Made by a program: the position numbers and the translations under genes. Of a stretch of 64,000 bases of DNA, positions 19,602 to 38,800 are shown one piece after another. Below the pieces are notes generated by a model. That model saw only the letters and a list, made by a program, of their open reading frames with translations, had not been told where the DNA came from and made no database searches. Source of the DNA: Escherichia phage vB_EcoS_VAH1; sequence record MK373792.1; one strand, 5' to 3'. Positions within the stretch are counted from its first letter, which is position 1, and each line of letters opens with the position of its first letter.

Positions 19602-20054
19602 ATGTCATTCACACAGCAAGAACTTTTAGATAACTTCCGATATGAAGATGGTAAGTTATTTAGAACTACAGGAAGAAATGCAGGGAAAGAATGTTGTGTC
19701 TCTACTGGTAACGGATATTATCGTATATCTCTAGGGAATAGGACTATGCTTCGGCATAGAGCAATATTTTTAATGCATCATGGATACTTACCTGATTTAG
19801 TAGATCATGTGAATACTGTAAAAGGTGATGATCGTATTGAAAATCTTAGAGAGCAGACAGTATCCGGTAATCTAAGAAATATCAAATATAAGAAAGGAAT
19901 GCATGTTTACCCTTCTGGTAGTAATAACTGGCAAGTAGTATTTACTATTAACCGTAAACGTATAGTTAAAGGAACATATGACAACTATGAGGTTGCATGT
20001 TCTATGGCCAAGATGTTTAGAGGTCAACTATACGGTAGGGAATCAATCCAGTAA
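19602..20054 (+). CDS. HNH homing endonuclease (HNH_3/AP2-like)
   Basis: Start moved to the ATG at 19602 (GGAGGT ribosome-binding site); HNH region RHRAIFLMHHGYLPDLVDHVN. Confidence 0.8.
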   Translation: MSFTQQELLDNFRYEDGKLFRTTGRNAGKECCVSTGNGYYRISLGNRTMLRHRAIFLMHHGYLPDLVDHVNTVKGDDRIENLREQTVSGNLRNIKYKKGMHVYPSGSNNWQVVFTINRKRIVKGTYDNYEVACSMAKMFRGQLYGRESIQ

Positions 20055-20059
20055 AATTT

Positions 20060-20589
20060 CATTTGCAAGGGAGTATTATTTTATAGTATAATATTCCCAT
20101 AAATGAGAGACATTAGTAAAAATTGATTTTGCTAATTTTTCTTGTTTACAATCCGCGATACGGAACAGTTAGGCTGCCCCATTAAGGGTTGTTTTAACTG
20201 TTACGTGTTAGTTTTTAAACAAATAGTTAATAGAATACTTAGCGATCTGCGTCCCGTAGGAACCCTGGTAAGGCCTCGAAGCAACCTAGATAGAGGTGGT
20301 TGTGAAGTGAGACGGGAGGAGTGAAAAACTCCGAGACGTGATTCTGTAAGTTATATTGCATCTAGTATGAGCTAGTATATGAAGCATTAGGTGAGCAAAT
20401 CTGGCTTAGCGGCCATCCTCAAGGATTTGTGCGGTATAGCAAAGCAGCAGCGCAGCGTGAGAGTGGAAGTTGCCACCCCACTTCAGTATTTGAGATTAAT
20501 TTGTTGAGAAATTGACAGTAACAGTTGTTCTATTCTTTCTGAATAGTCCTAAAGAAAACTTATTTCATTTCCAACACAGGAGTATTGTT
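20060..20589 (+). other. ORF-free, GC-richer structured region (promoter plus long leader; candidate ncRNA, origin or intron remnant)
   Basis: About 520 bp without a credible ORF; promoter-like TTGCAA...TATAAT near 20075-20110; hairpins AACAGTTA/TAACTGTT, GGAGT-GAAAA-ACTCC, GAAGT/ACTTC; direct repeat GAGACG. Confidence 0.4.
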
Positions 20590-23379
20590 GTGTTTTCAAT
20601 CCTACAAGGTCATGCAGGATTTCATCGCGATTTAGCCACGGGCAATTGGCGAGAAGTTAAAGCAGAAGACTATCTTTTTGCTAAAAGATTTTCCTCAAAG
20701 CATCCTGAAGGTAAACCAGCTTCAATGCCCTTCAAGTTTGATGTAATTGATGAAGTTGATCCTCAAACCCTAGTAGAAATGCTTCCTCTTATGAGACGTT
20801 TAACGTCTGACCCTCATATCGTTGCGGTACGAGGTCGATGTCTTGCACCTAAAAATAATGTGCGACGTAAGAAGGGCAACTTTAATGTATCTAACCCAAG
20901 TCATATAATTGCAATGGACGTGGATGGTATTGTAGATACAGGTGGTTGTAACAAGTTTGATCTTGTTGGCATGGCTCGACACATTATTAGAATGTTAAAT
21001 AGTATTAGTGAGGATATGTTTCCTCTTGATGCAGGGTTTATCGCTCATGCATCGTCTTCGGCTGGGCTAAAACCAGGTATCCGAATGCACTTAATACTAG
21101 AATCTAATGTTAAAGTAACTCAGGGTCAAATCAAGTTCTTATTTACATCTATCAATGAAAGTAGTAGACAAAAGTATGGCTTTGATATTGCCGACTTAGC
21201 TTATTACTCTTCCGTACAGCTCCATTACTTTGCAGATCCTTTATTTATTGATGGTATAGTCGATCCGTTTAAAGCGGAGGGTGCTTCACGTCTGGTATTT
21301 GTTAAAGGCTCAAAAGTAAATTTACCTAATAATCTAGTTGACTATGAAACAACTAGAGGAGAGTTTAAAGAGGAATTCTACTCTTTACTCGATCAAATTA
21401 AAGGTAAAAAAGCTGCCTCTGATAAAGTAGAAGAAACTATCAGCGAACTAGAAGAAGCTGAGGATGGAGTGTATCTACGTATTATTCCTAAACTCTATCA
21501 CAGGGCTTTAGAGGATGGTGTTGATTTTGCATGGCTAGAAAAAGAAATCCGTCCAGCCTTATCAGAATATATTGCAACTAAAGATAATAGTCGTAATATT
21601 CAAGACTACTTTAATAACGGTCGTAAACAGGCTCTAAAAGCGTTTGTTAATAATTCTAAGCGTGAGATCCCTGAAGTATTAAAAGGTATCCCCCTTAAAA
21701 AGCTAGAAACTAATTCACTAGAGACCGACAACTTCTTGAAATTAAATACTGTACCACCAGAAGGCTATATGACTTTTGTAAAAGCAAGTCTAGGCACAGG
21801 TAAAACCACGGCGGTTGTGCGTTGGTTAGATTCAGGGGTTATTAAAGGTAATTTCTTAGCAATTACCAATACTAGAGCACTGGTATCTTCAAATGCTAAG
21901 AAATTTAGTGCAGGACAATATGATAAGTCTGTAGATATGCTTAATTTTAAGCGTGGTGCTATTGACCGTATGTCCACAACTATTCACTCTTTGCATAAAT
22001 TCAAGAGTTTTATTGGTCAAATTGATGCAATCTTTATCGATGAATGTGATGCAGTAATGAATGACCTATTATTCGCCCCGGTTGTTAAGCAACGTCGTGA
22101 ATGTATTCAGGTTCTTCGGGATATTCTTGCAACTGCAAAAATCATTATATTATCTGATGGTGATATTAGTGCAGAAACAATTGAAGCATATGGTTCTTTG
22201 ATTGAGTTTGATAAACCGGTCGCATTTTATAATCATCATCGTAAGATGTTGTCAAAAGCTCATGCTTATGAGTTCCCTGATGAATCTAGTATTTGGGTTG
22301 CACTTCAAACATCACTAGAGATGGGTGAGAAATCTATTCTAGTATCTGATTGCGGCCCAGATGAGCTGAATGAGAAAGGTATGGCATTACGTCGTAATAC
22401 GGGTGCATTAGTTAAAGAAATCCATTCAAACTCTACATCTGATGTGGATATTAGACGTATTCTGGATTACACAACTAATGAGCTAATTGATCAACAAATT
22501 GATTGCTTATTATGTAGTCCATCCGTAACGAGTGGTGTTGACTTCAACTATTTTGATAACGTATTCGTTATTACTAGAACCAGTAACCAGGCGCCGAACA
22601 TGCGTTTTCAAGCAATCAGGCGCGACCGTGGTGCTCAGAATATCTATTATTTTATTGATAAATCCACTAGTGGATTCTCCGCAGGTTCTGAGCAATATAA
22701 CATTGATGAAGGTTGGCTCGAATTAGCACAGCAGTTATATGCACGTCGTAGGGAATTAGAGTCTAGGAACTATACTAGTACCTTACGCTATTACTTGCTT
22801 GATCAGGGAGCAACTATTGATATTTTCAGTGAAAGCTGGGGAACTATTGAAGGTGCTGGTAAAGAGTACACAGAAGAGCGAATCAAAGCTATTCTGCACT
22901 CAACTCCTGATTATTGTGCTCCACGTCATGCGGATGCGTATGAAGCTAAACTACTTCTTGTTCGCTATTATCATCTTGAGTCTATTAAAGATGTAACAGT
23001 TGAGCATGTTGAACAATATATCAAAGATAAGCCGAATGATCGAGCTGCATTCTTCCATAAGATGCACGAGATGTTCTGGGAAGATATTAAGAAGTGTTCA
23101 AATGTGACCATTAAACCATTCATAGAAGCTCTGAAAGGTAAGAAGAAGGACTTCTTCCTTAAAACAGGTCAGAGTGCTAACCCAAAATATGCTAGAATGT
23201 ATCTTGGTATGATGGGTATTGGTAAAGATATGAACACGGAGAATATCGTAGACTGGTACAGAACCTATTGTAAAATCGAATGTATGCCAATTCCTTTCAA
23301 ATTTATGACAGAGGAAGAGAAGGCTATGGCAGAAGAAGCAATGTCAGAGCTAGGTGCTAGAAATGACAGTGAAGAATAA
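20590..23379 (+). CDS. Large P-loop NTPase, putative replication origin-binding or helicase-like protein
   Basis: Track ORF 20512..23379; likely start is the in-frame GTG at 20590 (GGAG 7 nt upstream); Walker A SLGTGKTT about aa 420. Confidence 0.55.
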   Translation: MFSILQGHAGFHRDLATGNWREVKAEDYLFAKRFSSKHPEGKPASMPFKFDVIDEVDPQTLVEMLPLMRRLTSDPHIVAVRGRCLAPKNNVRRKKGNFNVSNPSHIIAMDVDGIVDTGGCNKFDLVGMARHIIRMLNSISEDMFPLDAGFIAHASSSAGLKPGIRMHLILESNVKVTQGQIKFLFTSINESSRQKYGFDIADLAYYSSVQLHYFADPLFIDGIVDPFKAEGASRLVFVKGSKVNLPNNLVDYETTRGEFKEEFYSLLDQIKGKKAASDKVEETISELEEAEDGVYLRIIPKLYHRALEDGVDFAWLEKEIRPALSEYIATKDNSRNIQDYFNNGRKQALKAFVNNSKREIPEVLKGIPLKKLETNSLETDNFLKLNTVPPEGYMTFVKASLGTGKTTAVVRWLDSGVIKGNFLAITNTRALVSSNAKKFSAGQYDKSVDMLNFKRGAIDRMSTTIHSLHKFKSFIGQIDAIFIDECDAVMNDLLFAPVVKQRRECIQVLRDILATAKIIILSDGDISAETIEAYGSLIEFDKPVAFYNHHRKMLSKAHAYEFPDESSIWVALQTSLEMGEKSILVSDCGPDELNEKGMALRRNTGALVKEIHSNSTSDVDIRRILDYTTNELIDQQIDCLLCSPSVTSGVDFNYFDNVFVITRTSNQAPNMRFQAIRRDRGAQNIYYFIDKSTSGFSAGSEQYNIDEGWLELAQQLYARRRELESRNYTSTLRYYLLDQGATIDIFSESWGTIEGAGKEYTEERIKAILHSTPDYCAPRHADAYEAKLLLVRYYHLESIKDVTVEHVEQYIKDKPNDRAAFFHKMHEMFWEDIKKCSNVTIKPFIEALKGKKKDFFLKTGQSANPKYARMYLGMMGIGKDMNTENIVDWYRTYCKIECMPIPFKFMTEEEKAMAEEAMSELGARNDSEE

Positions 23380-23595
23380 AAAATGGGAAACAAGGAAGTT
23401 TCCAGTAAAAGAACGTAAAGTTCCTATTTATGATACTTCGGAAAAGCTATGTAGGGTGGTACCATCTAGATTAGCTGGCATCCCTAACATATCCGAGTGG
23501 TTACTTAAACAACGGAGGACTAGCGTATCCCTTCGCATAGGGTTTGAGTTAGATAAAGTATATGCTGAACTTTCTTCTTTGCTCAAGGAACAATA

Positions 23596-24168
23596 ATGTT
23601 TATAAGAATTCCCGAATTTCCTGACTATGCAGTGAATGAAAATGGAGAGGTGTACTCTTTTCTCTCCTACAAGTTTCTTACTCCAGGTCAAAATACTGCT
23701 GGGTACTTACAAGTTAATTTAATGAAGGACGGCACCCCTATAAATGTGAGGGTGCATAGGTTAGTAGCTTATTGTTTTGGGCTACTTCCTGGGTTAGAAT
23801 CAGAATTGGTAGTAGACCATATAAACGATGATAAGTTAGATCCTAGACTATCTAACTTGCAGGTATTAACCTACAGAGCTAATGCAATAAAATTTCATAA
23901 TAAAAATTGGAGAGAACATCCAGATTTCCTAGTAGAAATTAAGAAATTAGAAAGTATGGGCATAACTAAAGCAGCTGCATCTTATAGGCGCAGGGCTATG
24001 TTTAAATATATTGTGGCTGTTCCCTCTAGTGATACTCTAACCTTAGAATTAATAGAATCTACATATCAGAAAACCAATTCTTGGGGAAAAACTGCTAGGG
24101 CTCTAGGCTTTAACAGTGCTCCTGCTATTAGATACAGGTATAATAAGCTGAAAGCAGCTTCTTTATAA
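23596..24168 (+). CDS. HNH homing endonuclease (NUMOD4 + HNH_3)
   Basis: 190 aa; N-terminal IPEFPDYAVNENGEVYS, HNH core VHRLVAYCF...VVDHINDDKLDPRLSNLQ. Confidence 0.8.
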   Translation: MFIRIPEFPDYAVNENGEVYSFLSYKFLTPGQNTAGYLQVNLMKDGTPINVRVHRLVAYCFGLLPGLESELVVDHINDDKLDPRLSNLQVLTYRANAIKFHNKNWREHPDFLVEIKKLESMGITKAAASYRRRAMFKYIVAVPSSDTLTLELIESTYQKTNSWGKTARALGFNSAPAIRYRYNKLKAASL

Positions 24169-24174
24169 ATTTTC

Positions 24175-24203
24175 TTGCTTTACGATGAATTTTTCTGTAT
24201 AAT
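24175..24203 (+). promoter_or_regulatory. PN25-like strong early promoter
   Basis: TTGCTTTACGATGAATTTTTCTGTATAATAGATTCATAAATTTGAGAGAGGAGTT; matches the T5 N25 promoter as I recall it. Confidence 0.7.
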
Positions 24204-24234
24204 AGATTCATAAATTTGAGAGAGGAGTTTAAAT

Positions 24235-24939
24235 ATGGCTGGTTCTCGCAGAAAGAAACATATCCATGAAATCCCGGATGAAGTCTTTAAAAAAGTTATA
24301 GAGCATCTGGAGAACGGTGGTACTAAGAAAGCAGCATGTGAAATGCTCGGCGTATCATCCAACCCAACTATGGAAAGGATGATAGAAGAGTGGCAAGACC
24401 GCCAGATCCAAGTTGCCGAGATGAAGAAAAAGAAACGTGGTACACTCATTGAAGGTATTGAGTTGGCCAACGTTATTGAACAGTATCTATCTGGTGATTC
24501 TTTTGAAGAGATTGCCGATCGTAATTACCGCTCTGTAGCAATGGTTAAATCTGTTCTGGAACGCTATGGTGCTCTGCTTCGTTTGAACGATATTGTAGAT
24601 CCATTGAATCCACCAATTATTCCTGATGATGCTGTAGCAGAAGAATTTGAGGTAGGTGAGCTTGTTTGGGTTCCTGGATACCAGTGTATCGGTGAAATCA
24701 AAAAAGCAATGGATAACCCTGTTGGTTGTTACCGTGTATGGCTTCTATCAGAAGGCAAACAACAGAATGTTCATTATATGAATTATGAATTAGCTTCTGT
24801 AAAGCATTTGGAAAAGCTAGGGGTAGACGTAAAATCTCTGGGGTATAAATGGTCCCGGGAAGAAGTTATCACACTGATTAACGAAGCTGTTAAGGCCGCC
24901 TTGAAACTTGATAAAGAAAAAGGAAAACGCCGTGAGTAG
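24235..24939 (+). CDS. Putative DNA-binding regulator with two helix-turn-helix-like segments
   Basis: 234 aa directly downstream of the PN25-like promoter; helix-turn-helix-like TKKAACEMLGVSSNPTMERMI and SFEEIADRNYRSVAMVKSVLERYG. Confidence 0.55.
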   Translation: MAGSRRKKHIHEIPDEVFKKVIEHLENGGTKKAACEMLGVSSNPTMERMIEEWQDRQIQVAEMKKKKRGTLIEGIELANVIEQYLSGDSFEEIADRNYRSVAMVKSVLERYGALLRLNDIVDPLNPPIIPDDAVAEEFEVGELVWVPGYQCIGEIKKAMDNPVGCYRVWLLSEGKQQNVHYMNYELASVKHLEKLGVDVKSLGYKWSREEVITLINEAVKAALKLDKEKGKRRE

Positions 24940-25183
24940 ACTAACTGATTTACTTAAAGATGGGGAAGTAAAAACACTATATCGTAGAAGCTGGGATAAC
25001 GATAATAACGGCTTAGTGTTACTAACTTTAGATGCTGACTCAGATGTAGCTACTCAGCATACCTGGGTAGCCGGTAACTATCCATATAGCGAGGTTGTTT
25101 CATTAACAGTATGCGAAGCTATTGCAGACGATTGGGAGGTTGCCAGCATCGATGATATGCTTGCTGTTGGCCTGGTGGAGTAA
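24932..25183 (+). CDS. Hypothetical protein
   Basis: Track ORF 24908..25183; more likely start is the GTG at about 24932 with AAGGAA ribosome-binding site. Confidence 0.4.
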   Translation: MSRLTDLLKDGEVKTLYRRSWDNDNNGLVLLTLDADSDVATQHTWVAGNYPYSEVVSLTVCEAIADDWEVASIDDMLAVGLVE

Positions 25184-25200
25184 CTACTTAAAAATTTCAG

Positions 25201-26477: not shown

Positions 26478-26747
26478 ATGACCAATGTAAAAGAATTTAT
26501 TAAACGCTGTCAAGAAGCATATTATCAAGGTATGTCTTTAATCTCTGATGAGGAATATGATTGCCTAGTAAAACGCTTCCCGTTAGAGGAAGAGATCGGG
26601 CCTAAGGGTGATATTCCACATCTGTATCGTATGTATTCTTTACAGAAAGTTTACTATAACCGTGGAGATAAACCACCATTCAATCCTTTAGGTCAGGTGG
26701 AAACCGATAAGTTAGATGGTTGTGCAATTTCTCTGCTATATATTTAA
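26478..26747 (+). CDS. lig: NAD-dependent DNA ligase, N-terminal fragment (ends just after the KxDG adenylation motif)
   Basis: 89 aa ending ...KLDGCAISLLYI*; the ligase continues in another frame from about 26746. Confidence 0.7.
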   Translation: MTNVKEFIKRCQEAYYQGMSLISDEEYDCLVKRFPLEEEIGPKGDIPHLYRMYSLQKVYYNRGDKPPFNPLGQVETDKLDGCAISLLYI

Positions 26748-27303
26748 TGGCGAATTTGTTCAAGCACTAACTCGTGGTAATGGTATTCTGGGGAATGATG
26801 TCACAAGCAACGTAAGATTGCTGAACATCCCTAAAAAGATTTCCCAAAAAGTACCTACTCAAATCACTGGTGAAGTTCTAATTACAAAAGAAGTAGAAAA
26901 TAAACGTAACTTTGCCTCTGGTGCTATTAACCTCAAAGATAGTGATGCTTTTGTACAACGTATCGGGGAAGGTGGTTTAATCTTCGTTGCATACGGTATC
27001 CAGTGTTCTGCTGAATCTGTAGGTATTACAGAAGCGTATTTAAAAGATATGCTTTGGCTAGAGAATGAGAACTTCTTAACAGTTGTTATGTGCGTTCCTC
27101 CTTTAAAATGGATTCCGACGGACGGTAAAGTTGTTCGTATTAATGACAACAACAAATTCTTCCGGGAAGGCTGGACTAATAAATTCCCTCGTGGGGCATT
27201 CGCTATTAAAGAGGATGAAGAAGGCGAGATTACAACTCTTACTAAAGTTGAATGGCAGGTAGGGGCTTCTGGTAAAGTTCCAGTTGGTTATTTCGAACCG
27301 TAA
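26716..27303 (+). CDS. lig: NAD-dependent DNA ligase, adenylation-domain fragment
   Basis: Frame contains NGEFVQALTRGNG... directly continuing the KLDG motif of the previous ORF; ends at tandem TAA TAA. Confidence 0.7.
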   Translation: MVVQFLCYIFNGEFVQALTRGNGILGNDVTSNVRLLNIPKKISQKVPTQITGEVLITKEVENKRNFASGAINLKDSDAFVQRIGEGGLIFVAYGIQCSAESVGITEAYLKDMLWLENENFLTVVMCVPPLKWIPTDGKVVRINDNNKFFREGWTNKFPRGAFAIKEDEEGEITTLTKVEWQVGASGKVPVGYFEP

Positions 27304-27306
27304 TAA

Positions 27307-27453
27307 TTGATTGATGCCACAATTGTTAAAGCGACTCTTAATAACGTTGATTATATTAACTCTCTCGATCTAGAGATCGGTTGCCAGATTCGAGTGATTC
27401 GTGCTGGTGGTGTAATCCCGTGCATAGTAGAGCGAGTATACGATTATACATAA
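27307..27453 (+). pseudogene. lig: NAD-dependent DNA ligase OB-fold segment lacking its own start
   Basis: Same frame as the previous fragment, right after TAA TAA; encodes [13 protein letters not shown]...[16 protein letters not shown] (compare ligase ATLHN...RAGDVIP). Confidence 0.5.
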
Positions 27454-29235: not shown

Positions 29236-30739
29236 ATTTAGAAGGCACGAAAGCGTGCAAAGGAGAATGACCTTGTTTAACGTGCAAGCTGTAGTGTTGA
29301 AGATGCTTCTAGCTTCCGAACAGAAGCAAATAGCATTGGAAACATTCTCAAAACTGCATAAAGATCATTTTAATGACGCTTTCTCCTCAATTTACCAAGC
29401 CGTCCAGAATTATTATAAAAAATATAACACAATGCCGTCCATTGACGCACTTATGCTTGAAGCTAATAGGAACGCCCGCCTTTCTCAAGCTCTAGTCGTC
29501 TTAGCTAACACTCAAATTCCAGAAGTGAGCATGGAACAGGCACTTGAAGTCCTAGAGGCCGAATATACACAGGATTTATTCCTGAAGCTTCTAGAAACAG
29601 ACGTGCTTCAAGATTTAACAATGCTGGATCAGGGAGAAATTCTCAACCGAGTTGCCTCCCTTCACTTAAAATTAGAAGAGAAAGTAACGAATACTGGAAA
29701 AGTATTCAACGCAGATAACATGCGTATTTTCCAGAGAGAAGAAGATACCAAACTGAACTTAATCGCTCTTGGTATTTGTAATGAGTTCGACGCTCAAATC
29801 GGTTTAGCTCGCACAGAAACGTTACTGCTTGGTGGTTGGCGTGGTACTGGTAAATCCATTATCTGTTCAAACATACAGGTTCAGCAATATTTGAATGGGG
29901 ATATTGCTCCATACTTCTCAATTGAGATGAAAGAACATGAAGTATTTAGACGTAATCTAGCCATGTTAGCTGGTGTATCAGCATTAGCAATGCGTAATAA
30001 TACTCTAGAAGGTGCAGCTCTGTTGAGATTAGCCAGAACTAGAGCTAGAATGTTTAATGGTGGTGAAGAGCTTTTCGACAACTTCGTTAAACAGTATACA
30101 ATGGCTAAGATGAGTGATTTCTACGATATGGAGAGTAAGCTAATAGAGGGATATGAACTACATACTCCTATGATTATCGTTTATGACCCTGAACTGTCCA
30201 TTACAACAGTTGACGTAGAATTAAATAAATTAGTTGCTAGATATGGTGATAAAGTTACAGTAGCTCTACTTGACTATATTAACCAAACCCGACTTCCAGA
30301 CTCTAAAACCATTGATATGTATGACTGGAAAGAACAGATGGTTGTTAGCTCGTCTTTCAAATCTATCTGCCAGAAACATAACGTGGCTGGTGTAGCTCCT
30401 TACCAGATCGATCAAGATGGTAGAACACGTATGTCAAAGGGTATTCTTGATTCCGCAGATATGGCTGCTAATCTTAATGCTGCAAAAGCTGATAATGGTC
30501 AAGGTGCTATTATGTTTGACTTCGTTAAGACTCGTTCTTCTGATAGCGTGAAGTTTATGCCTAAAATGAACTGGGAAACCTTGCGGATGGATAACACTAC
30601 CAACCTAGCAATGGAAGATATATCTCAAATGGAAGCTGAGTTCATTATCCCTATTGAGAAGGATAAGCCGGCTCAACCTAAACGTGCTAAGAAAGACAAA
30701 ACTGAAAATTCAACAGGTGAACAGGCCAGCGATATATGA
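29216..30739 (+). CDS. DnaB/RecA-like P-loop ATPase, putative replicative helicase
   Basis: 507-aa frame; Walker A GGWRGTGKS; true start uncertain because 29216 is inside the terminator hairpin (alternatives near 29267-29273). Confidence 0.55.
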   Translation: MLLPLFAFRRHESVQRRMTLFNVQAVVLKMLLASEQKQIALETFSKLHKDHFNDAFSSIYQAVQNYYKKYNTMPSIDALMLEANRNARLSQALVVLANTQIPEVSMEQALEVLEAEYTQDLFLKLLETDVLQDLTMLDQGEILNRVASLHLKLEEKVTNTGKVFNADNMRIFQREEDTKLNLIALGICNEFDAQIGLARTETLLLGGWRGTGKSIICSNIQVQQYLNGDIAPYFSIEMKEHEVFRRNLAMLAGVSALAMRNNTLEGAALLRLARTRARMFNGGEELFDNFVKQYTMAKMSDFYDMESKLIEGYELHTPMIIVYDPELSITTVDVELNKLVARYGDKVTVALLDYINQTRLPDSKTIDMYDWKEQMVVSSSFKSICQKHNVAGVAPYQIDQDGRTRMSKGILDSADMAANLNAAKADNGQGAIMFDFVKTRSSDSVKFMPKMNWETLRMDNTTNLAMEDISQMEAEFIIPIEKDKPAQPKRAKKDKTENSTGEQASDI

Positions 30740-31269
30740 TAACACAGGAAAGGCTAAAAGAGTTATTTGATTACTCCCCAGGAACTGGGGAGTTTACTAG
30801 AAAAGTATCTAGAGGTAATCAGAAAGCTGGTAGTATAGCTGGTTCTTTAAGAAAAGATGATTATATATGTATATGGGTAGATGGAAAGCCTTACTATGCG
30901 CATCAACTAGCTTTTCTCTATATGGAAGGTTATTTACCTGAAGAAGTAGACCATATAAACCGTATACGAAGTGATAATCGTTGGGTTAACCTTAAAGATT
31001 CTTCTCACCAAGAGAATAGCAGGAATAAAGCAGCTAAAAGTAAATCAGGGTATATAGGAGTTAGTTGGAATAAACAAAGGCAAAAATGGCAAGTTCAACT
31101 AAGAGATACCAATAAAAAGAAAATATTCGGTGGATATTTTGAGTACCAGAATTTAGAATCAGCCGTAGATAAGATTAATAAGCTACGATTACAATTTCAT
31201 GGGGAAAATGCTATTCAAGAAATATTCGACCCGTCTAATTATCCTGCATTAGAGGAGATAAATTCATGA
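30736..31269 (+). CDS. HNH homing endonuclease (HNH_3 + AP2)
   Basis: 177 aa; N-terminus MITQERLKEL shared with the ORF at 38324; HQLAFLYMEGYLPEEVDHINR. Confidence 0.8.
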   Translation: MITQERLKELFDYSPGTGEFTRKVSRGNQKAGSIAGSLRKDDYICIWVDGKPYYAHQLAFLYMEGYLPEEVDHINRIRSDNRWVNLKDSSHQENSRNKAAKSKSGYIGVSWNKQRQKWQVQLRDTNKKKIFGGYFEYQNLESAVDKINKLRLQFHGENAIQEIFDPSNYPALEEINS

Positions 31270-32156
31270 GTAGAATAACAGAATTACTTGATCTTAAGGG
31301 AATTGAGTATAAAGATACTGGTGGAGATATTTTAATCTGTTGCTTAAATCCAGATCATGATGATAAACACCCAAGTTTGCGTATTGATCCTGAAACCGGG
31401 ATTATGCACTGCTTGAGTTGCGGGTTTGGCAAAGGTATACCTAGTATTTATCATTATTTTAATGAGACTCAATATAGACAATCTCCAAGACTATCCCAAG
31501 TACGTAAAAAGATTTCAGAGATTAGAAATGGATCTACGAATCTTGCAATCCCAGAATCTGCCTGCCTTTTCGAAGGTGATTTCCGAGGTATCAGTTCTAA
31601 GACCTTGAAGAAATATTTTGCTTTCCAACATCAAGAGAACTGGGAAGGCAGAATTGTATTCCCAATCACAGATGCTGTTGGACGCAATATCCTATTTTTG
31701 GGTCGTTCTATAAACAGTTCTGCCCCTCCTAAATACTTAGTAAAACCAAAACAAGTTTCACCACCGATTTTCCCTGTACGATATAATACTCCAGTTCTTG
31801 TTCTAGTTGAAGGTATCTTTGATATGCTGAACCTAGAGGATAATGGTATAGACTATGCTTCTTGCTGCTTTGGTACACATCAGTTTACCTCGGATAACAT
31901 TGCAGATAAGTTCAGTCCGTATATTATTGCTGGTGTTAAAGTTGTTGTTATCTTACTAGATAATGATGCTTCTGGTAATAAAGCCGCACAAGCACTGGCT
32001 AAGCTAATTCGTACAAAAACGCGTTTAACACCTGTAGTTGCTAACTTTCTTCTGCCTGAAGGTAAAGACCCAGGTGACTTAAATAAAGAAGAAATTGATA
32101 TGTTAGCAAAACGTATTGAAATTTTAGTTGCTGAATCGCTTAAAGATTTGGTATAA
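31266..32156 (+). CDS. DNA primase (DnaG-like, CHC2 zinc finger + Toprim)
   Basis: 296 aa; zinc finger CLNPDHDDKHPSLRI...CLSCGFGKG; Toprim-like EG..D region. Confidence 0.8.
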   Translation: MSRITELLDLKGIEYKDTGGDILICCLNPDHDDKHPSLRIDPETGIMHCLSCGFGKGIPSIYHYFNETQYRQSPRLSQVRKKISEIRNGSTNLAIPESACLFEGDFRGISSKTLKKYFAFQHQENWEGRIVFPITDAVGRNILFLGRSINSSAPPKYLVKPKQVSPPIFPVRYNTPVLVLVEGIFDMLNLEDNGIDYASCCFGTHQFTSDNIADKFSPYIIAGVKVVVILLDNDASGNKAAQALAKLIRTKTRLTPVVANFLLPEGKDPGDLNKEEIDMLAKRIEILVAESLKDLV

Positions 32157-32182
32157 TAGTCCTAAATAACTGAGGAGCTACT

Positions 32183-32512
32183 ATGGAATATGTATATATT
32201 TATGCGGATGTTCCAGTGTATGATAGTATAACACACAAAGAGGTTAAACTAGAGCGGTTTACAACACTGGAGTCCCTTAATAAACGAAAGAATTTCCATT
32301 TATTTGGTGATCCTAAATTACCTGCATCTTATATTTACTTTAAAGTAAAAGATACAGGTCAAGAGGTATACCTAACATATGATTGGGCTGTTGTAGAAAA
32401 TACTGAGCAATCTATGAAAGCGCTAGATGCTTTTCTGCGTATAGATGAAGAATTTCGGGTACTAGAAAAGCAGCGCAATGAAATGCGTAAATTACTACAT
32501 ACCTATAAATAG
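32183..32512 (+). CDS. Hypothetical protein
   Basis: 109-aa ORF with GAGGAG ribosome-binding site. Confidence 0.55.
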   Translation: MEYVYIYADVPVYDSITHKEVKLERFTTLESLNKRKNFHLFGDPKLPASYIYFKVKDTGQEVYLTYDWAVVENTEQSMKALDAFLRIDEEFRVLEKQRNEMRKLLHTYK

Positions 32513-32515
32513 TAT

Positions 32516-32544
32516 TTGCTATTATCCCAATATTTTGATATAAT
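32516..32544 (+). promoter_or_regulatory. Sigma70 promoter (TTGCTA-N17-TATAAT) upstream of the DNA polymerase gene
   Basis: Consensus hexamers about 60 nt upstream of the pol start. Confidence 0.6.
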
Positions 32545-32605: not shown

Positions 32606-35173
32606 TTGAAAATCGCAGTAGTTGATAAAGCTCTAAATAACACTCGTTATGATAAACATTTCCAGCTATACGGCGAGGAAGTTGATGTATTCCATATGTG
32701 TAACGAGAAGTTGTCCGGTCGTTTGCTCAAAAAGCATATTACTATAGGGACTCCGGAAAACCCATTTGACCCGAATGATTATGATTTTGTTATACTGGTA
32801 GGTGCCGAACCTTTCCTGTACTTTGCAGGTAAGAAAGGTATTGGTGATTATACTGGTAAACGTGTAGAGTATAATGGATATGCTAACTGGATTGCGAGTA
32901 TCAGCCCAGCCCAGTTACACTTTAAACCTGAAATGAAACCAGTTTTTGATGCAACAGTAGAGAATATCCACGATATTATCAATGGTCGTGAGAAGATTGC
33001 AAAAGCTGGTGATTACCGTCCTATTACTGACCCTGATGAGGCAGAAGAATATATCAAGATGGTGTATAATATGGTTATCGGACCTGTCGCATTCGACTCC
33101 GAAACCTCAGCACTATACTGTCGAGATGGTTATCTACTTGGTGTTTCTATATCTCACCAAGAGTATCAGGGTGTATATATCGATTCTGATTGCCTCACAG
33201 AGGTTGCAGTATATTACCTCCAGAAAATCCTGGATAGTGAAAACCACACTATTGTTTTTCACAACTTGAAGTTTGATATGCACTTTTATAAGTACCATCT
33301 GGGACTTACTTTTGATAAAGCACATAAAGAACGCAGGCTCCATGATACCATGTTGCAGCACTATGTTCTAGATGAACGTCGTGGTACTCATGGCTTGAAA
33401 TCTCTAGCAATGAAGTATACCGATATGGGTGACTATGACTTTGAACTAGATAAGTTCAAAGATGATTACTGCAAAGCACATAAAATCAAGAAAGAAGATT
33501 TCACCTATGATTTAATTCCGTTTGATATTATGTGGCCTTACGCTGCGAAAGATACAGATGCCACCATACGTTTGCACAACTTCTTCTTACCAAAGATTGA
33601 GAAGAATGAAAAACTTTGCAGTCTGTATTACGATGTTTTGATGCCTGGTTGCGTATTCTTGCAACGTGTTGAAGATCGTGGTGTACCTATTTCTATCGAT
33701 CGTTTAAAAGAAGCTCAGTATCAGTTAACCCATAATCTGAATAAAGCCCGTGAGAAACTGTACACTTATCCAGAAGTTAAACAGCTAGAACAAGATCAGA
33801 ATGAAGCGTTTAACCCGAACTCTGTTAAGCAGCTGCGCGTTCTTCTGTTTGATTACGTTGGCTTAACTCCAACAGGTAAACTGACGGATACTGGAGCAGA
33901 TTCTACAGATGCAGAAGCTCTGAATGAGCTGGCTACGCAGCATCCAATTGCTAAAACTCTACTAGAGATTCGTAAGCTGACTAAGCTGATCTCTACTTAT
34001 GTTGAGAAGATTCTACTGAGTATTGATGCAGATGGTTGCATTCGTACTGGTTTCCATGAACATATGACTACTTCTGGTCGTCTGAGTTCTTCTGGTAAAC
34101 TGAACCTGCAACAGCTACCTCGTGATGAATCTATTATCAAGGGTTGTGTAGTTGCACCACCTGGATACCGTGTAATCGCGTGGGACTTAACAACTGCGGA
34201 AGTTTACTATGCTGCTGTTCTATCTGGGGATAGAAATATGCAACAGGTATTTATCAACATGAGAAATGAACCCGATAAATACCCAGACTTCCACTCTAAC
34301 ATCGCCCACATGGTATTTAAATTGCAATGTGAACCTCGTGATGTTAAGAAGCTGTTCCCAGCTCTACGTCAGGCAGCTAAGGCAATTACCTTTGGTATTT
34401 TGTATGGTTCTGGCCCGGCTAAAGTAGCACATTCTGTTAACGAAGCATTGCTCGAACAAGCAGCCAAAACTGGGGAACCGTTTGTTGAATGTACTGTTGC
34501 AGATGCTAAAGAGTACATTGAGACTTACTTTGGTCAATTCCCACAGCTTAAGCGTTGGATTGATAAGTGCCACGATCAGATCAAGAATCATGGATTTATC
34601 TATAGTCACTTTGGTCGTAAACGTCGTCTGCATAATATCCATTCCGAAGACCGTGGTGTTCAGGGTGAAGAAATTCGTTCTGGATTTAACGCAATCATTC
34701 AGTCTGCTTCTTCTGATAGTCTCCTTTTAGGTGCTGTAGATGCAGATAATGAGATCATTTCTCTTGGTTTAGAACAAGAGATGAAGATTGTTATGTTGGT
34801 TCATGACTCCGTAGTTGCTATTGTTCGTGAGGATTTGATCGACCAATACAATGAAATCCTGATTCGTAATATTCAGAAAGACCGTGGTATCAGTATTCCT
34901 GGCTGTCCGATTGGTATTGATTCAGATTCTGAAGCCGGGGGTTCTCGTGACTATTCTTGTGGTAAGATGAAGAAACAGCACCCATCAATTGCTTGTATTG
35001 ATGATGATGAATATACTCGTTACGTTAAAGAAATGCTACTTGATGCAGATTTCGAGTATAAGAAACTAGCTGCGATGGATAAAGAGCATCCAGACCACAG
35101 CAAGTACAAGGATGATAAGTTTATTGCTGTATGTAAAGATCTGGATAACGTGAAAAGGATTCTCGGTGCTTAA
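32606..35173 (+). CDS. DNA polymerase, family A (T5-type, 855 aa), TTG start
   Basis: 855 aa from a TTG with AAGAGGAG ribosome-binding site; N-terminal 3'-5' exonuclease and C-terminal Pol I-like polymerase domains. Confidence 0.9.
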   Translation: MKIAVVDKALNNTRYDKHFQLYGEEVDVFHMCNEKLSGRLLKKHITIGTPENPFDPNDYDFVILVGAEPFLYFAGKKGIGDYTGKRVEYNGYANWIASISPAQLHFKPEMKPVFDATVENIHDIINGREKIAKAGDYRPITDPDEAEEYIKMVYNMVIGPVAFDSETSALYCRDGYLLGVSISHQEYQGVYIDSDCLTEVAVYYLQKILDSENHTIVFHNLKFDMHFYKYHLGLTFDKAHKERRLHDTMLQHYVLDERRGTHGLKSLAMKYTDMGDYDFELDKFKDDYCKAHKIKKEDFTYDLIPFDIMWPYAAKDTDATIRLHNFFLPKIEKNEKLCSLYYDVLMPGCVFLQRVEDRGVPISIDRLKEAQYQLTHNLNKAREKLYTYPEVKQLEQDQNEAFNPNSVKQLRVLLFDYVGLTPTGKLTDTGADSTDAEALNELATQHPIAKTLLEIRKLTKLISTYVEKILLSIDADGCIRTGFHEHMTTSGRLSSSGKLNLQQLPRDESIIKGCVVAPPGYRVIAWDLTTAEVYYAAVLSGDRNMQQVFINMRNEPDKYPDFHSNIAHMVFKLQCEPRDVKKLFPALRQAAKAITFGILYGSGPAKVAHSVNEALLEQAAKTGEPFVECTVADAKEYIETYFGQFPQLKRWIDKCHDQIKNHGFIYSHFGRKRRLHNIHSEDRGVQGEEIRSGFNAIIQSASSDSLLLGAVDADNEIISLGLEQEMKIVMLVHDSVVAIVREDLIDQYNEILIRNIQKDRGISIPGCPIGIDSDSEAGGSRDYSCGKMKKQHPSIACIDDDEYTRYVKEMLLDADFEYKKLAAMDKEHPDHSKYKDDKFIAVCKDLDNVKRILGA

Positions 35174-35181
35174 TTTCAAAT

Positions 35182-35208
35182 TGCCCGTATATGCTTTACG
35201 GGCATTTG
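35182..35208 (+). terminator. Terminator-like hairpin after the polymerase gene
   Basis: Stem TGCCCGTA/TACGGGCA followed by a weak TTTGTAT run. Confidence 0.4.
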
Positions 35209-35375
35209 TATCAATTGAGCAAGAAGGTGATTATTCCGTAATTACAACAAGATATAATAAATATGTGCTAGATAACAGGAAGTTGCCTGGTACTTTTTCT
35301 CAACGTAGGCTTATTCTATTTGAGAAACGGAAAGAATTACCATACAAGCTCTATCCTATTAGAGGTAGAATATCA

Positions 35376-35663
35376 ATGTTGTCTCAATTAGTTGGGTCAA
35401 AGCGTAGCCAATTTATAGATTCTGATGGAAATCTTATTAACTGGAAGAAAACTACGTTCTATGATGTTGTCACCTCTAAAGTTTTGCATTCAGCTAGAAT
35501 TTATAACGGAAAATACCAATGCTATGTAGCTAAAGTTCCATATCCATTTGTATTATCCTATGTTCCAGCTTATATAAGCTATATTCTGGTAAATAATAGC
35601 CCTGTTATTTATCAAGTCCATCAAGAGGAGCCTGAAATTCCTAGACTTAGAATAAAATTATGA
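35376..35663 (+). CDS. Hypothetical protein (start uncertain)
   Basis: Track ORF 35166..35663 begins over the terminator; the internal ATG at about 35376 has a GAGGT ribosome-binding site. Confidence 0.3.
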   Translation: MLSQLVGSKRSQFIDSDGNLINWKKTTFYDVVTSKVLHSARIYNGKYQCYVAKVPYPFVLSYVPAYISYILVNNSPVIYQVHQEEPEIPRLRIKL

Positions 35664-35812
35664 AGGTTGTTATATCTAATAAAGCCTATTTCAAGCCCGA
35701 TGATGAACTTTGGGATTATTGTAGTAAGCAAACCACTTATCACATAGAGACAATGACTAGTAAATACCCTATTATGTATAAGAATAGTGGTGTTGTTGCC
35801 CAAAGAGATTAA
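35660..35812 (+). CDS. DExH-box helicase, N-terminal fragment (about 50 aa; absent from the ORF track)
   Basis: ATG overlaps the upstream stop (ATGA); MKVVISNKAYFKPDDELWDYCSKQTTYHIETMTSKYPIMYKNSGVVAQRD*; the frame shifts at a GCCC run into the next fragment. Confidence 0.4.
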   Translation: MKVVISNKAYFKPDDELWDYCSKQTTYHIETMTSKYPIMYKNSGVVAQRD

Positions 35813-36239
35813 GTGGATTCCTATTACGCGTCTGGACTTATTAGATGCTAAAGGAATAAAATACGAATTAGTCGATAAACGCACATTAGCTCCAGTAGAT
35901 ATACCAAAACCTGAGTTCAAGCTGCGTGAAGAAGACCAGCTCCCAATATATAAAGAGTGTGATGATACCTGTATTATTAATGGTAAGCCTGGATTTGGTA
36001 AAACTATCCTAGCCCTTGCACTTGCGTATAAATTTGGCCAGAAAACTTTGGTAATCTGTACAAATACATCCATACGTGAAATGTGGGCGGCAGAAGTTCG
36101 TAAATGGTTTGGGTTTGAACCAGGCATCATAGGTTCTGGGAAGTACAATATTGATCCACCAATTGTAGTCAGCAATATTCAAACAGTAAATAAACATGCG
36201 AATAATCTTTCTAAAGTATTCGGTACTGTTTATAGTTGA
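35787..36239 (+). CDS. SF2 DExH-box helicase (D10-like), fragment with motif I
   Basis: No ribosome-binding site at the track start; Walker A GKPGFGKT; ends ...KVFGTVYS* at a GTTT run. Confidence 0.7.
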   Translation: MVLLPKEIKWIPITRLDLLDAKGIKYELVDKRTLAPVDIPKPEFKLREEDQLPIYKECDDTCIINGKPGFGKTILALALAYKFGQKTLVICTNTSIREMWAAEVRKWFGFEPGIIGSGKYNIDPPIVVSNIQTVNKHANNLSKVFGTVYS

Positions 36240-37014
36240 TGAAGTTCACCATTGTGTGGCTACAACTTTCACTAATTTCCTAGAAATATCATGTGCTCGC
36301 TATAAAATTGGACTATCCGGTACACTAAAACGAAAAGATGGTTTACAAGTTATGTTCAAAGATTTCTTTGGATATAAGATATTTAGCCCGCCGGTTAATA
36401 ATACTGTTGCACCTACAATCCATAGGTACTCCGTGCCTGTTGAGCTATCAGGAAACCAAAACGTGCCGTGGGCATTACGTGCTAACGATGTGTATAATCA
36501 TCCTGAATATCGAGAGACTATTATAAACCTAGCACATTTATATGTGAATATGGGGCATAAAGTACTCATTGTAAGTGATAGAACAGAGTTAATCCAAACA
36601 GTACTAGAAGCTCTTACGCAGCGGGGTGTTACAACATATGAAATTATAGGGGCAACCCACTTAGATGACCGATTAAAAATTCAGGAAGATATAGCAAAAG
36701 GTGGGCCTTGTGTACTTGCAGCAGCTCAAAGTATCTTCTCTGAAGGTATTTCTCTTAATGAGCTATCTTGTTTAATAATGGGAAGCCTCATTAATAATGA
36801 ATCTCTCATTGAACAGCTTGCAGGCCGTGTTCAACGTATTGTCGATGGTAAACTCGACCCTATTGTTGTAGATCTAATTATGAAAGGTGGCACTGGACTA
36901 AGACAGGCTTCTGGACGTATGGCAGTATATCGTAACAACGGGTGGAAAACTATTACTATGACCCCGGAGAAAGCAGTTCAATTAGCTAAAATTGCATTTG
37001 GCAACAGCTCATAA
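36196..37014 (+). CDS. SF2 DExH-box helicase (D10-like), fragment with motifs II-VI
   Basis: Begins ...FIVDEVHH (motif II), then SGT (motif III) and QLAGRVQR (motif VI); frame is +1 relative to the previous fragment. Confidence 0.7.
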   Translation: MRIIFLKYSVLFIVDEVHHCVATTFTNFLEISCARYKIGLSGTLKRKDGLQVMFKDFFGYKIFSPPVNNTVAPTIHRYSVPVELSGNQNVPWALRANDVYNHPEYRETIINLAHLYVNMGHKVLIVSDRTELIQTVLEALTQRGVTTYEIIGATHLDDRLKIQEDIAKGGPCVLAAAQSIFSEGISLNELSCLIMGSLINNESLIEQLAGRVQRIVDGKLDPIVVDLIMKGGTGLRQASGRMAVYRNNGWKTITMTPEKAVQLAKIAFGNSS

Positions 37015-37026
37015 ATGATGTATAAT
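36998..37026 (+). promoter_or_regulatory. Putative promoter (TTGGCA-N17-TATAAT) within the helicase 3' end
   Basis: Followed by CATAAATTTGAGAGAGAGAAAG, which resembles the PN25 downstream region. Confidence 0.45.
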
Positions 37027-37099
37027 ATATACATAAATTTGAGAGAGAGAAAGTTTCGGATTGATAAGAAAGTCCGAAGCAGAAAAATAAAAATTTTAG

Positions 37100-37129
37100 T
37101 TGCTAAATTCTCTCGAAATCTAGTATAAT
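37100..37129 (+). promoter_or_regulatory. Sigma70 promoter (TTGCTA-N18-TATAAT)
   Basis: Followed by CATAAATTCGAGGAG; upstream of the genes at 37237 and 37514. Confidence 0.55.
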
Positions 37130-37236
37130 ATATACATAAATTCGAGGAGAAAACAAAAATTAAATTCTTCGATTATGAAAAGCTATACTTACTAGCTAGA
37201 GGAAATTCCGACTTAATTATTAAGTTATTCAAAAGA

Positions 37237-37521
37237 ATGCTTACAGAGCCTGATGCTCACCAATTATTGGTCGGTTCCTCATTCATTTTGAATGAATCAA
37301 CAATAGTTGATAATCAAAATAAATTGTCTAATAGACAACTGGCAGAATATCTAGGAATTTTAAGTCTACGAAATTATGCCGAATACAAGTTTACAAACGA
37401 TCCTAGTTTGGACATACAATATGTTCCAGTATGGATACCTCGTTTAGTAATCGACACTAACCCACTAATCGCAATTAACAAATCGAAATTAATCTTTAAA
37501 GAGGAAATAAAATATGGCTAA
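37237..37521 (+). CDS. Hypothetical protein
   Basis: 94-aa ORF with a weak ribosome-binding site; overlaps the next gene's start. Confidence 0.35.
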   Translation: MLTEPDAHQLLVGSSFILNESTIVDNQNKLSNRQLAEYLGILSLRNYAEYKFTNDPSLDIQYVPVWIPRLVIDTNPLIAINKSKLIFKEEIKYG

Positions 37522-38287
37522 GTCTTGGGGCGAAACTACTGGCGGTTCTAACGATAAAATCGAATTCCTGAAGTTCAACAACGGTATCACTCATGTTCGT
37601 ATCGTTTCTGGTGTTCTTCCACGTTATGTCTACTGGCTGACTAATAAAGAGGGTAGCGTAGCTCCTTTCGAATGTCTCCGTTTTAACCGTGACAAAGAGA
37701 GCTTTGTTCGTGGTAAAGCTGATCCGGTTCATGAGATGGGCTTCTTTGAGAAAGAGCTGGATAAAGATGGTAATCGCGTTCCGCTGAAACCGAAGAAAAA
37801 CTATATCGCTTTTGTTATCGACCGTTCTGATAACAAACTGAAAGTAATGGAAGTCAAAGCTACTATTCTGAAAGGCATCCAGTCTATCATGAAGCAGTTG
37901 AGTCTGGCAACTCCGTTTGATATTGATATTTCTATCGAGAAAAAAGGTAAAGGTTTCGATACTGAGTATGATGTACAGCAGATTGCTGCTATGCAATTCC
38001 AGATTAAGCTGCAAGATCCTAACAGTGCAGAATCTAAGCAATATGCTGCGGATGTAGATCTGATTGGTGAAGCTATGTGTGATGAAGATGGCGACATCAT
38101 TAAGTTCGAGAAAGTTCCTTCTCTGGAGCAAACCTATCCGGTTCCTACCTATGAAGAGCAGAAAGAAGCAATTCAAGCCTTCATGGAAGGTCGTGAGAAT
38201 AAAGATGATGATGCCAAATCTGGTAACAGCAATGCTGGTTCCCAGAAAGGTATTGACCAAGAAGCTGCAAGCGATCTGGATGACTAA
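37514..38287 (+). CDS. Putative ssDNA-binding protein with acidic C-terminal tail
   Basis: 257 aa; strong AAAGAGGAAA ribosome-binding site; preferred codons; C-terminus ...QEAASDLDD is typical of SSB-type tails. Confidence 0.45.
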   Translation: MAKSWGETTGGSNDKIEFLKFNNGITHVRIVSGVLPRYVYWLTNKEGSVAPFECLRFNRDKESFVRGKADPVHEMGFFEKELDKDGNRVPLKPKKNYIAFVIDRSDNKLKVMEVKATILKGIQSIMKQLSLATPFDIDISIEKKGKGFDTEYDVQQIAAMQFQIKLQDPNSAESKQYAADVDLIGEAMCDEDGDIIKFEKVPSLEQTYPVPTYEEQKEAIQAFMEGRENKDDDAKSGNSNAGSQKGIDQEAASDLDD

Positions 38288-38294
38288 TAAATAG

Positions 38295-38318
38295 AGGGGC
38301 TTCGGCCCCTTTCTTTTT
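38295..38318 (+). terminator. Rho-independent terminator
   Basis: Stem AGGGGC/GCCCCT with TTCG loop, followed by TTCTTTTT. Confidence 0.7.
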
Positions 38319-38323
38319 AACCA

Positions 38324-38800
38324 ATGATTACACAAGAGCGATTAAAAGAGCTGTTAGATTATAATCCTGAGACTGGAGTATTTACCTGGAAAGTATCTCG
38401 TGGTAGAGTTTCAAAAGGATCTGTAGCTGGAACAGCAGTATCAGTAGGGAATAGGTACACCCGCTGGGAGATTCGAGTTGAAGGAAAAAGATATAAGGCG
38501 CATCAGTTAGCATTTCTATACGTTCATGGTTATATTCCACCTGAGATTGATCATGAAGATAGGAATCCATTGAATAATGCAATACTTAACCTAATAGACT
38601 CTTCAAAGTCTCGTAATCAATTAAATAAGAATAAAAACTTCGGTAAAGAAACACCAAAAGGAGTCTTTGTAAAAGCCTCTACTGGAAGATACTTCGTACA
38701 GATTCAAGGAAAGCACTACGGCTACTTTGATGACGTAGAACAGGCCAGAACTGTTGCTAATGAGGTATATGATAGGTTGTTAAATGAGAATACTGTTTAG
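38324..38800 (+). CDS. HNH homing endonuclease (paralog of 30736..31269)
   Basis: 158 aa; MITQERLKELLDY...HQLAFLYVHGYIPPEIDHEDRN. Confidence 0.8.
   Translation: MITQERLKELLDYNPETGVFTWKVSRGRVSKGSVAGTAVSVGNRYTRWEIRVEGKRYKAHQLAFLYVHGYIPPEIDHEDRNPLNNAILNLIDSSKSRNQLNKNKNFGKETPKGVFVKASTGRYFVQIQGKHYGYFDDVEQARTVANEVYDRLLNENTV

Follow-up and report, generated by a model that had tools for sequence, protein, structure and literature searches.

Four putative free-standing HNH homing endonuclease genes, and recoded tracts beside two of them, in the replication region of a T5-like phage

Introduction

In T4-like phages that carry free-standing homing endonuclease genes (HEGs), the HEG-less allele is cut near the insertion site and flanking markers are co-converted (PMC2330249). 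Among T5-like phages, HEGs make the largest contribution to differences between genomes, according to a study of the T5 relative BF23 (PMC10644984), and HEGs of the HNH-AP2 and T5orf172 kinds have been found to cluster beside replisome and ribonucleotide reductase genes (Barth et al., PMC10448857). The T5 record itself contains three genes annotated as H-N-H endonucleases, hegH, hegI and hegJ, the kind to which the HNH_3 genes described here also belong. Here we analyse a stretch of 64,000 nucleotides (nt) from Escherichia phage vB_EcoS_VAH1 (MK373792.1), which we call the window, and four genes within it, which we call H1 to H4 in their order along the plus strand. We conclude that they are very probably free-standing HEGs of the HNH (His-Me finger) class resident in a T5-like phage.

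The window corresponds to the replication region of a Tequintavirus (T5-like) genome, its best-matching records being SP15 and MM-1 at 95–96% DNA identity. A 20.5-kb stretch around the four genes is matched by 492 phage records, mostly from phages of Salmonella or Escherichia; among the relatives examined, the closest belong to Tequintavirus (Demerecviridae), with one placed in Epseptimavirus. The order of T5 replication and recombination genes is kept, running from the Sir2-like genes through T5.106/107, the origin-binding protein, D2, D3 and ligA/ligB to D5, the D6 helicase, primase, polymerase, the D10 helicase, D11 and D12/D13.

Results

Four HNH genes of two architectures

An initial annotation of the window had placed four HNH endonuclease genes in it, and all four open reading frames (ORFs) are present there, intact and on the plus strand (Table 1). 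It had also described all four as of the HNH_3/AP2 type. The HNH_3 half of that description stands, each ORF exceeding the Pfam gathering score for HNH_3 (PF13392; 24.8 bits), and the PHROG families that they match carry HNH endonuclease annotations (E from 1e-28 to 5e-66). The AP2 half does not extend to H2, in which HNH_3 is paired with NUMOD4 and which phmmer aligns to I-HmuI (PDB 1U3E; E 2e-7, residues 10–97, covering the DH...N motif); as judged from its sequence, H2 appears to have the NUMOD4-HNH-helix-turn-helix layout of that enzyme. H1, H3 and H4, by contrast, appear to join an N-terminal I-HmuI-like HNH_3 module to a small AP2-like DNA-binding domain. Among the four, Pfam matches AP2 only in H3, below threshold (E 0.002, 18.8 bits against a cut-off of 33.3), and gives no direct AP2 match in H1, while precomputed AP2 matches (PF00847) are present in many homologues of H4.

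The catalytic residues expected of such enzymes, namely a general-base His within a D-H pair and Asn residues that bind metal or have a structural role, are kept throughout. In an alignment of H4 with 109 homologues, H77 and N89 are invariant, as are Y13 and G18, and D76, N85, N98 and N101 are conserved in at least 90%; the corresponding pattern reads VDHVN...ENL in H1, VDHIN...SNL...RAN in H2 and VDHIN...VNL in H3. An AlphaFold2 model of H4 (predicted local distance difference test score, pLDDT, of 90) comprises an N-terminal beta-rich module, an HNH core and a C-terminal part in which residues 114–155 form three strands followed by a long helix. Its best match in the PDB is again I-HmuI (1U3E; probability 1.0, root-mean-square deviation 3.6 Å over 85 columns, with a modest E-value of 6e-3), followed by I-PpoI, in keeping with a beta-beta-alpha-metal fold, and its C-terminal part shows a weak fold match to the AP2 domain of Arabidopsis TEM1 (probability 0.57–0.63, E ~2). 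A sequence search of H3 against solved structures gave no match.

Precise, sporadic insertion among close relatives

H1 lies between the homologues of T5.107 and T5.108 (the origin-binding protein) and H2 between the T5.110 homologue and D2. The D6 DnaB-like helicase gene and the primase gene flank H3, which is at the position of T5 hegJ (P-TflX), and H4 is flanked by D11, annotated as a single-stranded DNA-binding protein, and the SbcD-like D12; for H3 and H4, the neighbours named in the initial annotation agree with the annotation of T5. Each gene is a clean indel between flanks that are 95–99% identical to the compared genomes (Table 1). Overlaps with neighbouring genes, which had been described for several of the ORFs, are present in three. 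The start of H2 and the end of the upstream T5.110 homologue have 1 nt in common (TAATG), H3 forms ATGA overlaps at both ends, with the helicase stop and the primase start, and the last 17 nt of H4 plus its stop codon lie within D12, whereas H1 overlaps nothing.

We counted occupancy of the four sites in about 28 T5-like genomes from IMG/VR (27 for the H1 site) and records per gene by megablast in the INPHARED phage set. H1, which with its cassette makes a net insertion of ~510 nt, occurs in MM-1 and in 4 of the 27 IMG/VR genomes. Of 28 genomes, 25 have nothing at the H2 site, and the other three carry an unrelated HNH gene that is 43% identical to H3. At the helicase-primase junction 19 genomes are empty and nine occupied, eight by a gene of the T5 hegJ type and one by that of the window, two alleles that are only 65% identical in protein. 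The D11-D12 junction is empty in 25 of 28 genomes and in the other three is held by a third lineage, ~29% identical to H4. Neither the H2 nor the H4 allele of the window was found among these IMG/VR genomes.

In the INPHARED set, H1 matches 42 records, at 98.7% DNA identity to genes annotated there as HNH or homing endonucleases, H2 matches 12 (87–93.5% DNA identity) and H3 matches 66, including a gene of MM-1 that is 99.6% identical in DNA; other records already list near-identical copies of H1, H2 and H3 as HNH or homing endonucleases. Megablast finds no match to H4 among the phage records. A protein search finds eight records with a 76–77% identical gene at exactly the H4 position, and we located the exact H4 protein only on a 2.3-kb contig of an SRA assembly; a cluster of proteins 97% identical to H4 has four members. 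H4 is a rare allele.

The alleles at these sites are far more diverged than the DNA around them. Compared with slur09, phB7 and JLBYU40, DNA identity is 67–77% inside the H4 insertion and breaks sharply at its edges, the flanks being 97–100% identical in D11 and in D12 past its first ~140 nt, and 91–92% over 38820–38919. At the H4 site the two alleles have reached saturation in synonymous divergence (dS, 2.9), compared with 0.12–0.16 in the flanking genes. Taken with a ratio of non-synonymous to synonymous divergence (dN/dS) of 0.06 between H4 and the slur09 type, this contrast indicates old, functional lineages residing in young flanks. Comparing H3 with hegJ gives a ratio of 0.22, and comparing H2 with the SB9 copy one of 0.12, values that likewise reflect purifying selection. 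H3 is in addition a mosaic, its first ~100 nt being 100% identical to T5 hegJ and the remainder 56–72%.

Traffic has also run the other way: the window lacks T5 hegH (nrdA-nrdB), hegI and the T5.141 endonuclease, pointing to exchange in both directions. We considered whether H2 might be an allele of hegI and rejected this, since the window has no hegI and H2 sits one gene further downstream, after the T5.110 homologue; the two are not mutually exclusive, DaisyDussoix carrying both. Where hegI is missing, the matches to the left and right flanks in T5 have 8 nt of the window in common, a sign that the insertion in T5 is bordered by an 8-nt repeat. The proposal that H1–H4 are selfish intergenic insertions is supported by the clean indels and by low occupancy across T5-like genomes, most relatives having empty sites. 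The ORFs are not conserved at the same positions in related genomes, the opposite of the conservation that the initial annotation had named, together with a lack of nuclease activity, as weakening the case for mobility.

Recoded tracts beside H3 and H4

Beside H3 and H4, the downstream gene opens with a tract of recoded codons (Table 1). When the primase gene is aligned across 17 empty and 11 occupied genomes, dense third-position changes appear over codons 7–27 in all occupied genomes, in at least two haplotypes, and the recoding is absent from the 17 empty ones; the end of the helicase gene, upstream, shows no such contrast. Variants private to the window occupy 14 of 85 nt in the tract versus 25 of 1123 elsewhere (Fisher 9e-8), and of the first 100 primase codons 36 differ from an empty genome, all synonymously. 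Across the phage database a 90-nt stretch of the primase gene is bimodal, with 43 records at 90% identity or more to the window and 391 at 80–90%.

The start of D12 presents the same picture. Relative to T5, nothing further changes after codon 22 until codon 79; relative to the consensus of empty genomes, the window has 13 differences within 66 nt of the D12 start and then none for 155 nt, and variants private to the window occupy 14 of 70 nt in the tract versus 4 of 1130 elsewhere (Fisher 4e-15). Over 38801–38860, identity to the window reaches at most 86.7% in any phage record. The two other HEG lineages found at the D11-D12 junction have substitution clusters of their own over the same D12 codons, and nearly all empty genomes have none. 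Two genomes in which this junction is empty, L003 and L028, nevertheless carry parts of the third-lineage tract (that of L004, L022 and L024) in the first ~170 nt of D12; in L003, D11 is 100% identical to the window and H4 is absent. These partial tracts suggest either loss of the HEG or conversion of the flank without it.

We predict that the tracts beside H3 and H4 are homing targets or co-conversion tracts. They form an indirect but strong sequence signature, of the kind to be expected if the enzymes recognised the start of the downstream gene in HEG-less genomes and if genomes with a HEG were immune or had received converted donor sequence. The mechanism that we propose for these free-standing HEGs would begin with a HEG-carrying phage and a HEG-less relative infecting the same cell. 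The enzyme would nick or cut the HEG-less allele near the empty insertion site, and the HEG-carrying genome would serve as the repair template, so that the HEG and some of its flank are copied, as in intronless homing with co-conversion, or marker exclusion. The HEG-carrying genome would itself be spared through synonymous recoding of the stretch that the enzyme recognises. The predicted targets are about codons 7–27 of the primase gene for H3 and about codons 4–22 of D12 for H4; we predict none for H1 or H2.

A wider reading is possible, and we put it forward tentatively, as short of probable: that the helicase-primase and D11-D12 junctions are contested homing sites, where long-diverged HNH lineages displace each other, with two alleles at the first junction and no fewer than three lineages at the second, and where the first 20–30 downstream codons are repeatedly recoded at wobble positions in an arms race between specificity and immunity. 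H4, with its unique D12 tract, would then be a specificity variant without a closer deposited relative.

Several observations weigh against homing by these genes or against the targets proposed. The limits of the tracts used in the Fisher tests were set after the alignments had been inspected. The synonymous tracts could be donor polymorphism that hitch-hiked by co-conversion, and not recognition sites. The flanks of H1 and H2 have no comparable signature, so that no target is inferred for them: the sole change common to H2-carrying genomes is a 3-nt change that creates the TAATG overlap, and the H1 flanks show only unrelated small indels. Frameshifts in ligA and D10 show that the quality of the sequence is imperfect, although all four HEG ORFs have the full length of their homologues despite them. 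Lastly, H4 starts 11 nt past the D11 terminator, with no Shine-Dalgarno sequence or other recognisable ribosome-binding site, making its expression uncertain.

Activity, expression and the place of the genes in the phage

Might the genes, then, be decaying or inactive HEG remnants, or nuclease-dead DNA-binding proteins, retained through slow deletion or through their overlap with essential genes? Degeneration is expected once a HEG is fixed in a population, and decay is visible in relatives: the H4-site gene of JLBYU40 (L033, 2501–2806) is annotated as a truncated form of 101 residues, and the H2 homologue of DaisyDussoix (L191, 1501–2081) has been broken into two ORFs and differs in length by 8 nt. 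The missing ribosome-binding site of H4 points the same way. In the window, however, the ORFs are undamaged, the catalytic D-H and Asn residues are kept and dN/dS of 0.06–0.22 indicates continuing purifying selection; the sites are moreover far from fixed in the population, so that opportunities for homing remain. We consider remnants improbable, and the decayed copies in JLBYU40 and DaisyDussoix fit the HEG life cycle.

The surroundings of the genes suggest how they may be expressed. The H1 cassette contains a promoter-like site that ends 20 nt before the H1 ATG, which is preceded by the strong Shine-Dalgarno sequence GGAGGTGAGG. H2 and H3 appear to be set up for translational coupling through their TAATG and ATGA overlaps. 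In empty genomes an ATGA links helicase and primase directly, and the insertion of H3 restores that junction. Expression of H4 would be kept low by the terminator and the missing ribosome-binding site, and low expression has been described for other free-standing HEGs (PMC2330249).

Such coupling, together with the location of the genes within a replication and recombination operon, could also be expected of domesticated phage enzymes, which would introduce the site-specific nicks found in T5-type DNA or help in replication, recombination or packaging. HNH enzymes of the I-HmuI type are nickases (PMC3017599), and the virion DNA of T5-like phages carries specific nicks (PMC10644984). Yet T5 DNA is nicked although T5 lacks H1, H2 and H4, three of the four genes, and we have set aside a role in T5 nicking for that reason. 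The emptiness of the sites in most close relatives argues that none of the genes is required for a conserved function, and different, unrelated HNH genes occupy the same sites. Nor is a terminase gene adjacent, unlike the arrangement of packaging-associated HNH proteins; the terminase genes of T5 begin at position 106618 of its record, past the end of the window, and H1–H4 all lie in the replication and recombination region. Domestication is accordingly very improbable, and mobile, free-standing HEGs remain by far the better account of H1–H4.

H3 and H4 as separate lineages

The initial annotation had pointed out that H3 and H4 both start MITQERLKEL and contain AHQLAFLY...(I/V)DH, which is correct, and had taken this to indicate recent duplication or spread, which the DNA comparison, the saturated dS and the family-wide N-terminus contradict. 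With all four proteins aligned, H3 and H4 are the most similar pair, at 54% identity, but over the first 102 residues only; their C-terminal domains are unrelated and do not align. The codes for the shared decapeptide differ at 8 of 30 nt, DNA identity over the first 82 nt is 71% and synonymous divergence between the two genes is saturated. The consensus N-terminus of the 109-member family alignment is MITQERLKELLDYNPETGVFTWKV, found also in homologues, from unrelated phages and metagenomes, that are only 40–45% identical overall. Of 120 homologues, mostly 40–50% identical overall, 55 have ERL[KR]E[LV] within their first 25 residues, and many start exactly MITQERLKEL; the shared decapeptide is therefore a conserved feature of the family and not evidence of recent copying. 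The nearest relative of each gene is the alternative allele at its own site, the slur09 type for H4 (76%) and T5 hegJ for H3 (65%). That the identical N-termini are the remnant of a recent duplication or transposition in this genome is hardly credible, and the sequence comparisons refute it: the ten shared residues, the common motif and the pair's rank among the four speak for it, against the nucleotide differences, the unalignable C-terminal halves and the fact that neither gene is closest to the other.

Other features of the window

A tblastn search of the whole window with the four proteins found no other HNH paralogues. Its sole weak match (14898–15101, E 0.019) is the start of nrdD, beside a T5orf172 gene and not an HNH gene. 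That T5orf172-family gene, at 14060–14731 on the plus strand and thus outside the 19602–38800 interval that holds H1–H4, is a fifth putative free-standing HEG. Its product, of 223 residues, combines a T5orf172/MUG113 (GIY-YIG-like) domain with two treble-clef zinc-finger repeats (DUF4379, CapR), and its PHROG match is phrog_681 ('endonuclease'); the gene overlaps the start of nrdD by 14 nt, and T5 has no corresponding segment at that position.

Two further small segments vary between the window and T5. A cassette of 375 nt between the primase and DNA polymerase genes (32159–32533), present in MM-1 and not in T5, contains an ORF of 109 residues (32183–32512, plus strand; phrog_35630, function unknown, no Pfam match) that is not a nuclease. 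Between the RNase H and thymidylate synthase genes, 295 nt (7314–7608) stand in place of 50 nt of T5 and encode an ORF of 93 residues on the minus strand (7310–7591), without a Pfam match. On a larger scale, the nrdD region (13927–16632) is only ~68% identical to T5 and ~700 nt longer, and the long-tail-fibre (ltf) region is replaced (43721–46324; 2604 nt here versus 3927 nt in T5), both being large divergent blocks within a backbone that is otherwise 90–97% identical.

The two frameshifted genes differ in their damage. Relative to T5 and MM-1, ligA (26478–27450) carries one extra base (+1) at 26743, a -1 and a +1 change at 27087/27105 that compensate each other and, near 27303, two stop codons in frame, and reads as three fragments; it may be either a pseudogene or the product of sequencing error. 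The D10 helicase gene (35660–37014), intact in T5 and MM-1, is broken in the window by one added C (35799) and one added T (36229), both in short homopolymer runs, which suggests homopolymer sequencing errors in the source assembly.

Table 1. Positions of the four genes, their insertions and associated features in the window
Feature	Position	Strand	Description
H1	19602..20054	+	150-aa HNH_3 endonuclease; Pfam HNH_3 43.5 bits, E 2.5e-11; phrog_99, E 1.7e-41
H2	23596..24168	+	190-aa NUMOD4 + HNH_3 endonuclease, I-HmuI-related; Pfam HNH_3 33.3 bits; phrog_59
H3	30736..31269	+	177-aa HNH_3 + AP2-like endonuclease; Pfam HNH_3 50.0 bits, E 2.3e-13; phrog_99
H4	38324..38800	+	158-aa HNH_3 + AP2-like endonuclease; Pfam HNH_3 39.8 bits, E 3.5e-10; phrog_99
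Primase codons 7–27 tract	31284..31346	+	Synonymously recoded only in HEG-carrying genomes; looser tract on to ~31560
D12 codons 4–22 tract	38793..38849	+	11 synonymous codon changes and W22F versus genomes without a HEG at this site (T5)
H1 cassette	19478..20086	+	609 nt replacing 99 nt of the T5.107-T5.108 intergenic region (blastn versus T5)
H2 insertion	23597–24166	+	Clean 570 nt between the T5.110 homologue and the D2 promoter, versus T5 and MM-1
H4 insertion	38321–38780	+	Clean 460 nt, 3 nt before the D12 ATG, directly after the D11 terminator
Empty T5 hegH site	10225–10228		nrdA/nrdB
Empty T5 hegI site	23359–23366		After the origin-binding gene
Empty T5.141 site	~56530		
Promoter-like site in H1 cassette	19554..19582	+	TTGACA-17-AATAAT, extended TG, 11/12; consensus match only
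D11 intrinsic terminator	38293..38312	+	Directly upstream of the H4 insertion point; annotated in T5

Discussion

The four genes are an ordinary instance of a phenomenon already known in T5-like phages, and for the most part they change nothing in that picture. What they add is a rare allele, H4, the presence of several lineages at the same insertion points and two concrete predictions of targets. For two uncharacterised enzymes there are now exact insertion points and a predicted site of action, the 5' end of the primase gene for the H3/hegJ type and the 5' end of D12 for the H4 type. Competing HEG lineages at the same sites would supply natural variants for the study of DNA recognition by HNH-AP2 enzymes and of escape by their targets. 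Elements of this kind bias the inheritance of markers in mixed infection, which matters for the crossing or engineering of T5-like phages.

Among described systems, the free-standing SegB, SegE, SegF, SegG and MobE genes of T4-like phages resemble H1–H4 in being intergenic and absent from close relatives, and the mechanism of the Seg proteins leaves a pattern like that of the tracts linked to HEGs near the starts of the primase gene and of D12. The Seg proteins, however, are of the GIY-YIG class and belong to a different phage lineage, while H1–H4 are HNH proteins known from sequence. In protein type a close counterpart is I-HmuI, the nicking HEG product of Bacillus phage SPO1, which resembles H2 by sequence (NUMOD4 and HNH) and H4 by modelled fold; the chemistry that they would be expected to share is His-Me finger cleavage, possibly as strand-specific nicking. 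I-HmuI differs in being encoded within a group I intron of a DNA polymerase gene, where H1–H4 stand free between genes, and in having helical and helix-turn-helix DNA-binding modules in place of the AP2-like C-terminal domain of H1, H3 and H4.

Within T5 itself, free-standing HNH site-specific endonucleases have been shown experimentally to be active (a 2004 study cited in PMC2330249 and PMC10644984); their genes lie in the tRNA cluster, outside the replication region covered by the window, and we liken them to H1–H4 by description. A further T5 counterpart is hegJ (T5.120, putative H-N-H endonuclease P-TflX), with which H3 shares its position, its length of 177 residues, its ATGA overlaps and its first ~100 nt, and from which it differs after codon 34 (65% identity in protein overall, 56–72% in DNA); hegJ is itself only a putative enzyme. 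Considered as a set, the HEGs of the two phages are differently distributed, the window lacking hegH and hegI and carrying H1, H2 and H4 where T5 has nothing.

H1, H3 and H4, though not H2, may also be compared with the family of HNH-AP2 HEGs, which includes the IPA-HNH HEGs of phage ICP1 (Barth et al. 2023, PMC10448857) and in which an N-terminal HNH domain is followed by a C-terminal AP2 domain. Pfam HNH_3 matches H1–H4 directly but fails on the IPA-HNH domains, which have diverged too far, and the AP2 assignment made here draws on the sub-threshold Pfam match of H3, the modest fold match of H4 and the AP2 matches among homologues. In their placement the two sets are alike: HNH-AP2 HEGs lie beside replisome and other essential genes, with several HEGs to a locus (PMC10448857), as is seen here too.

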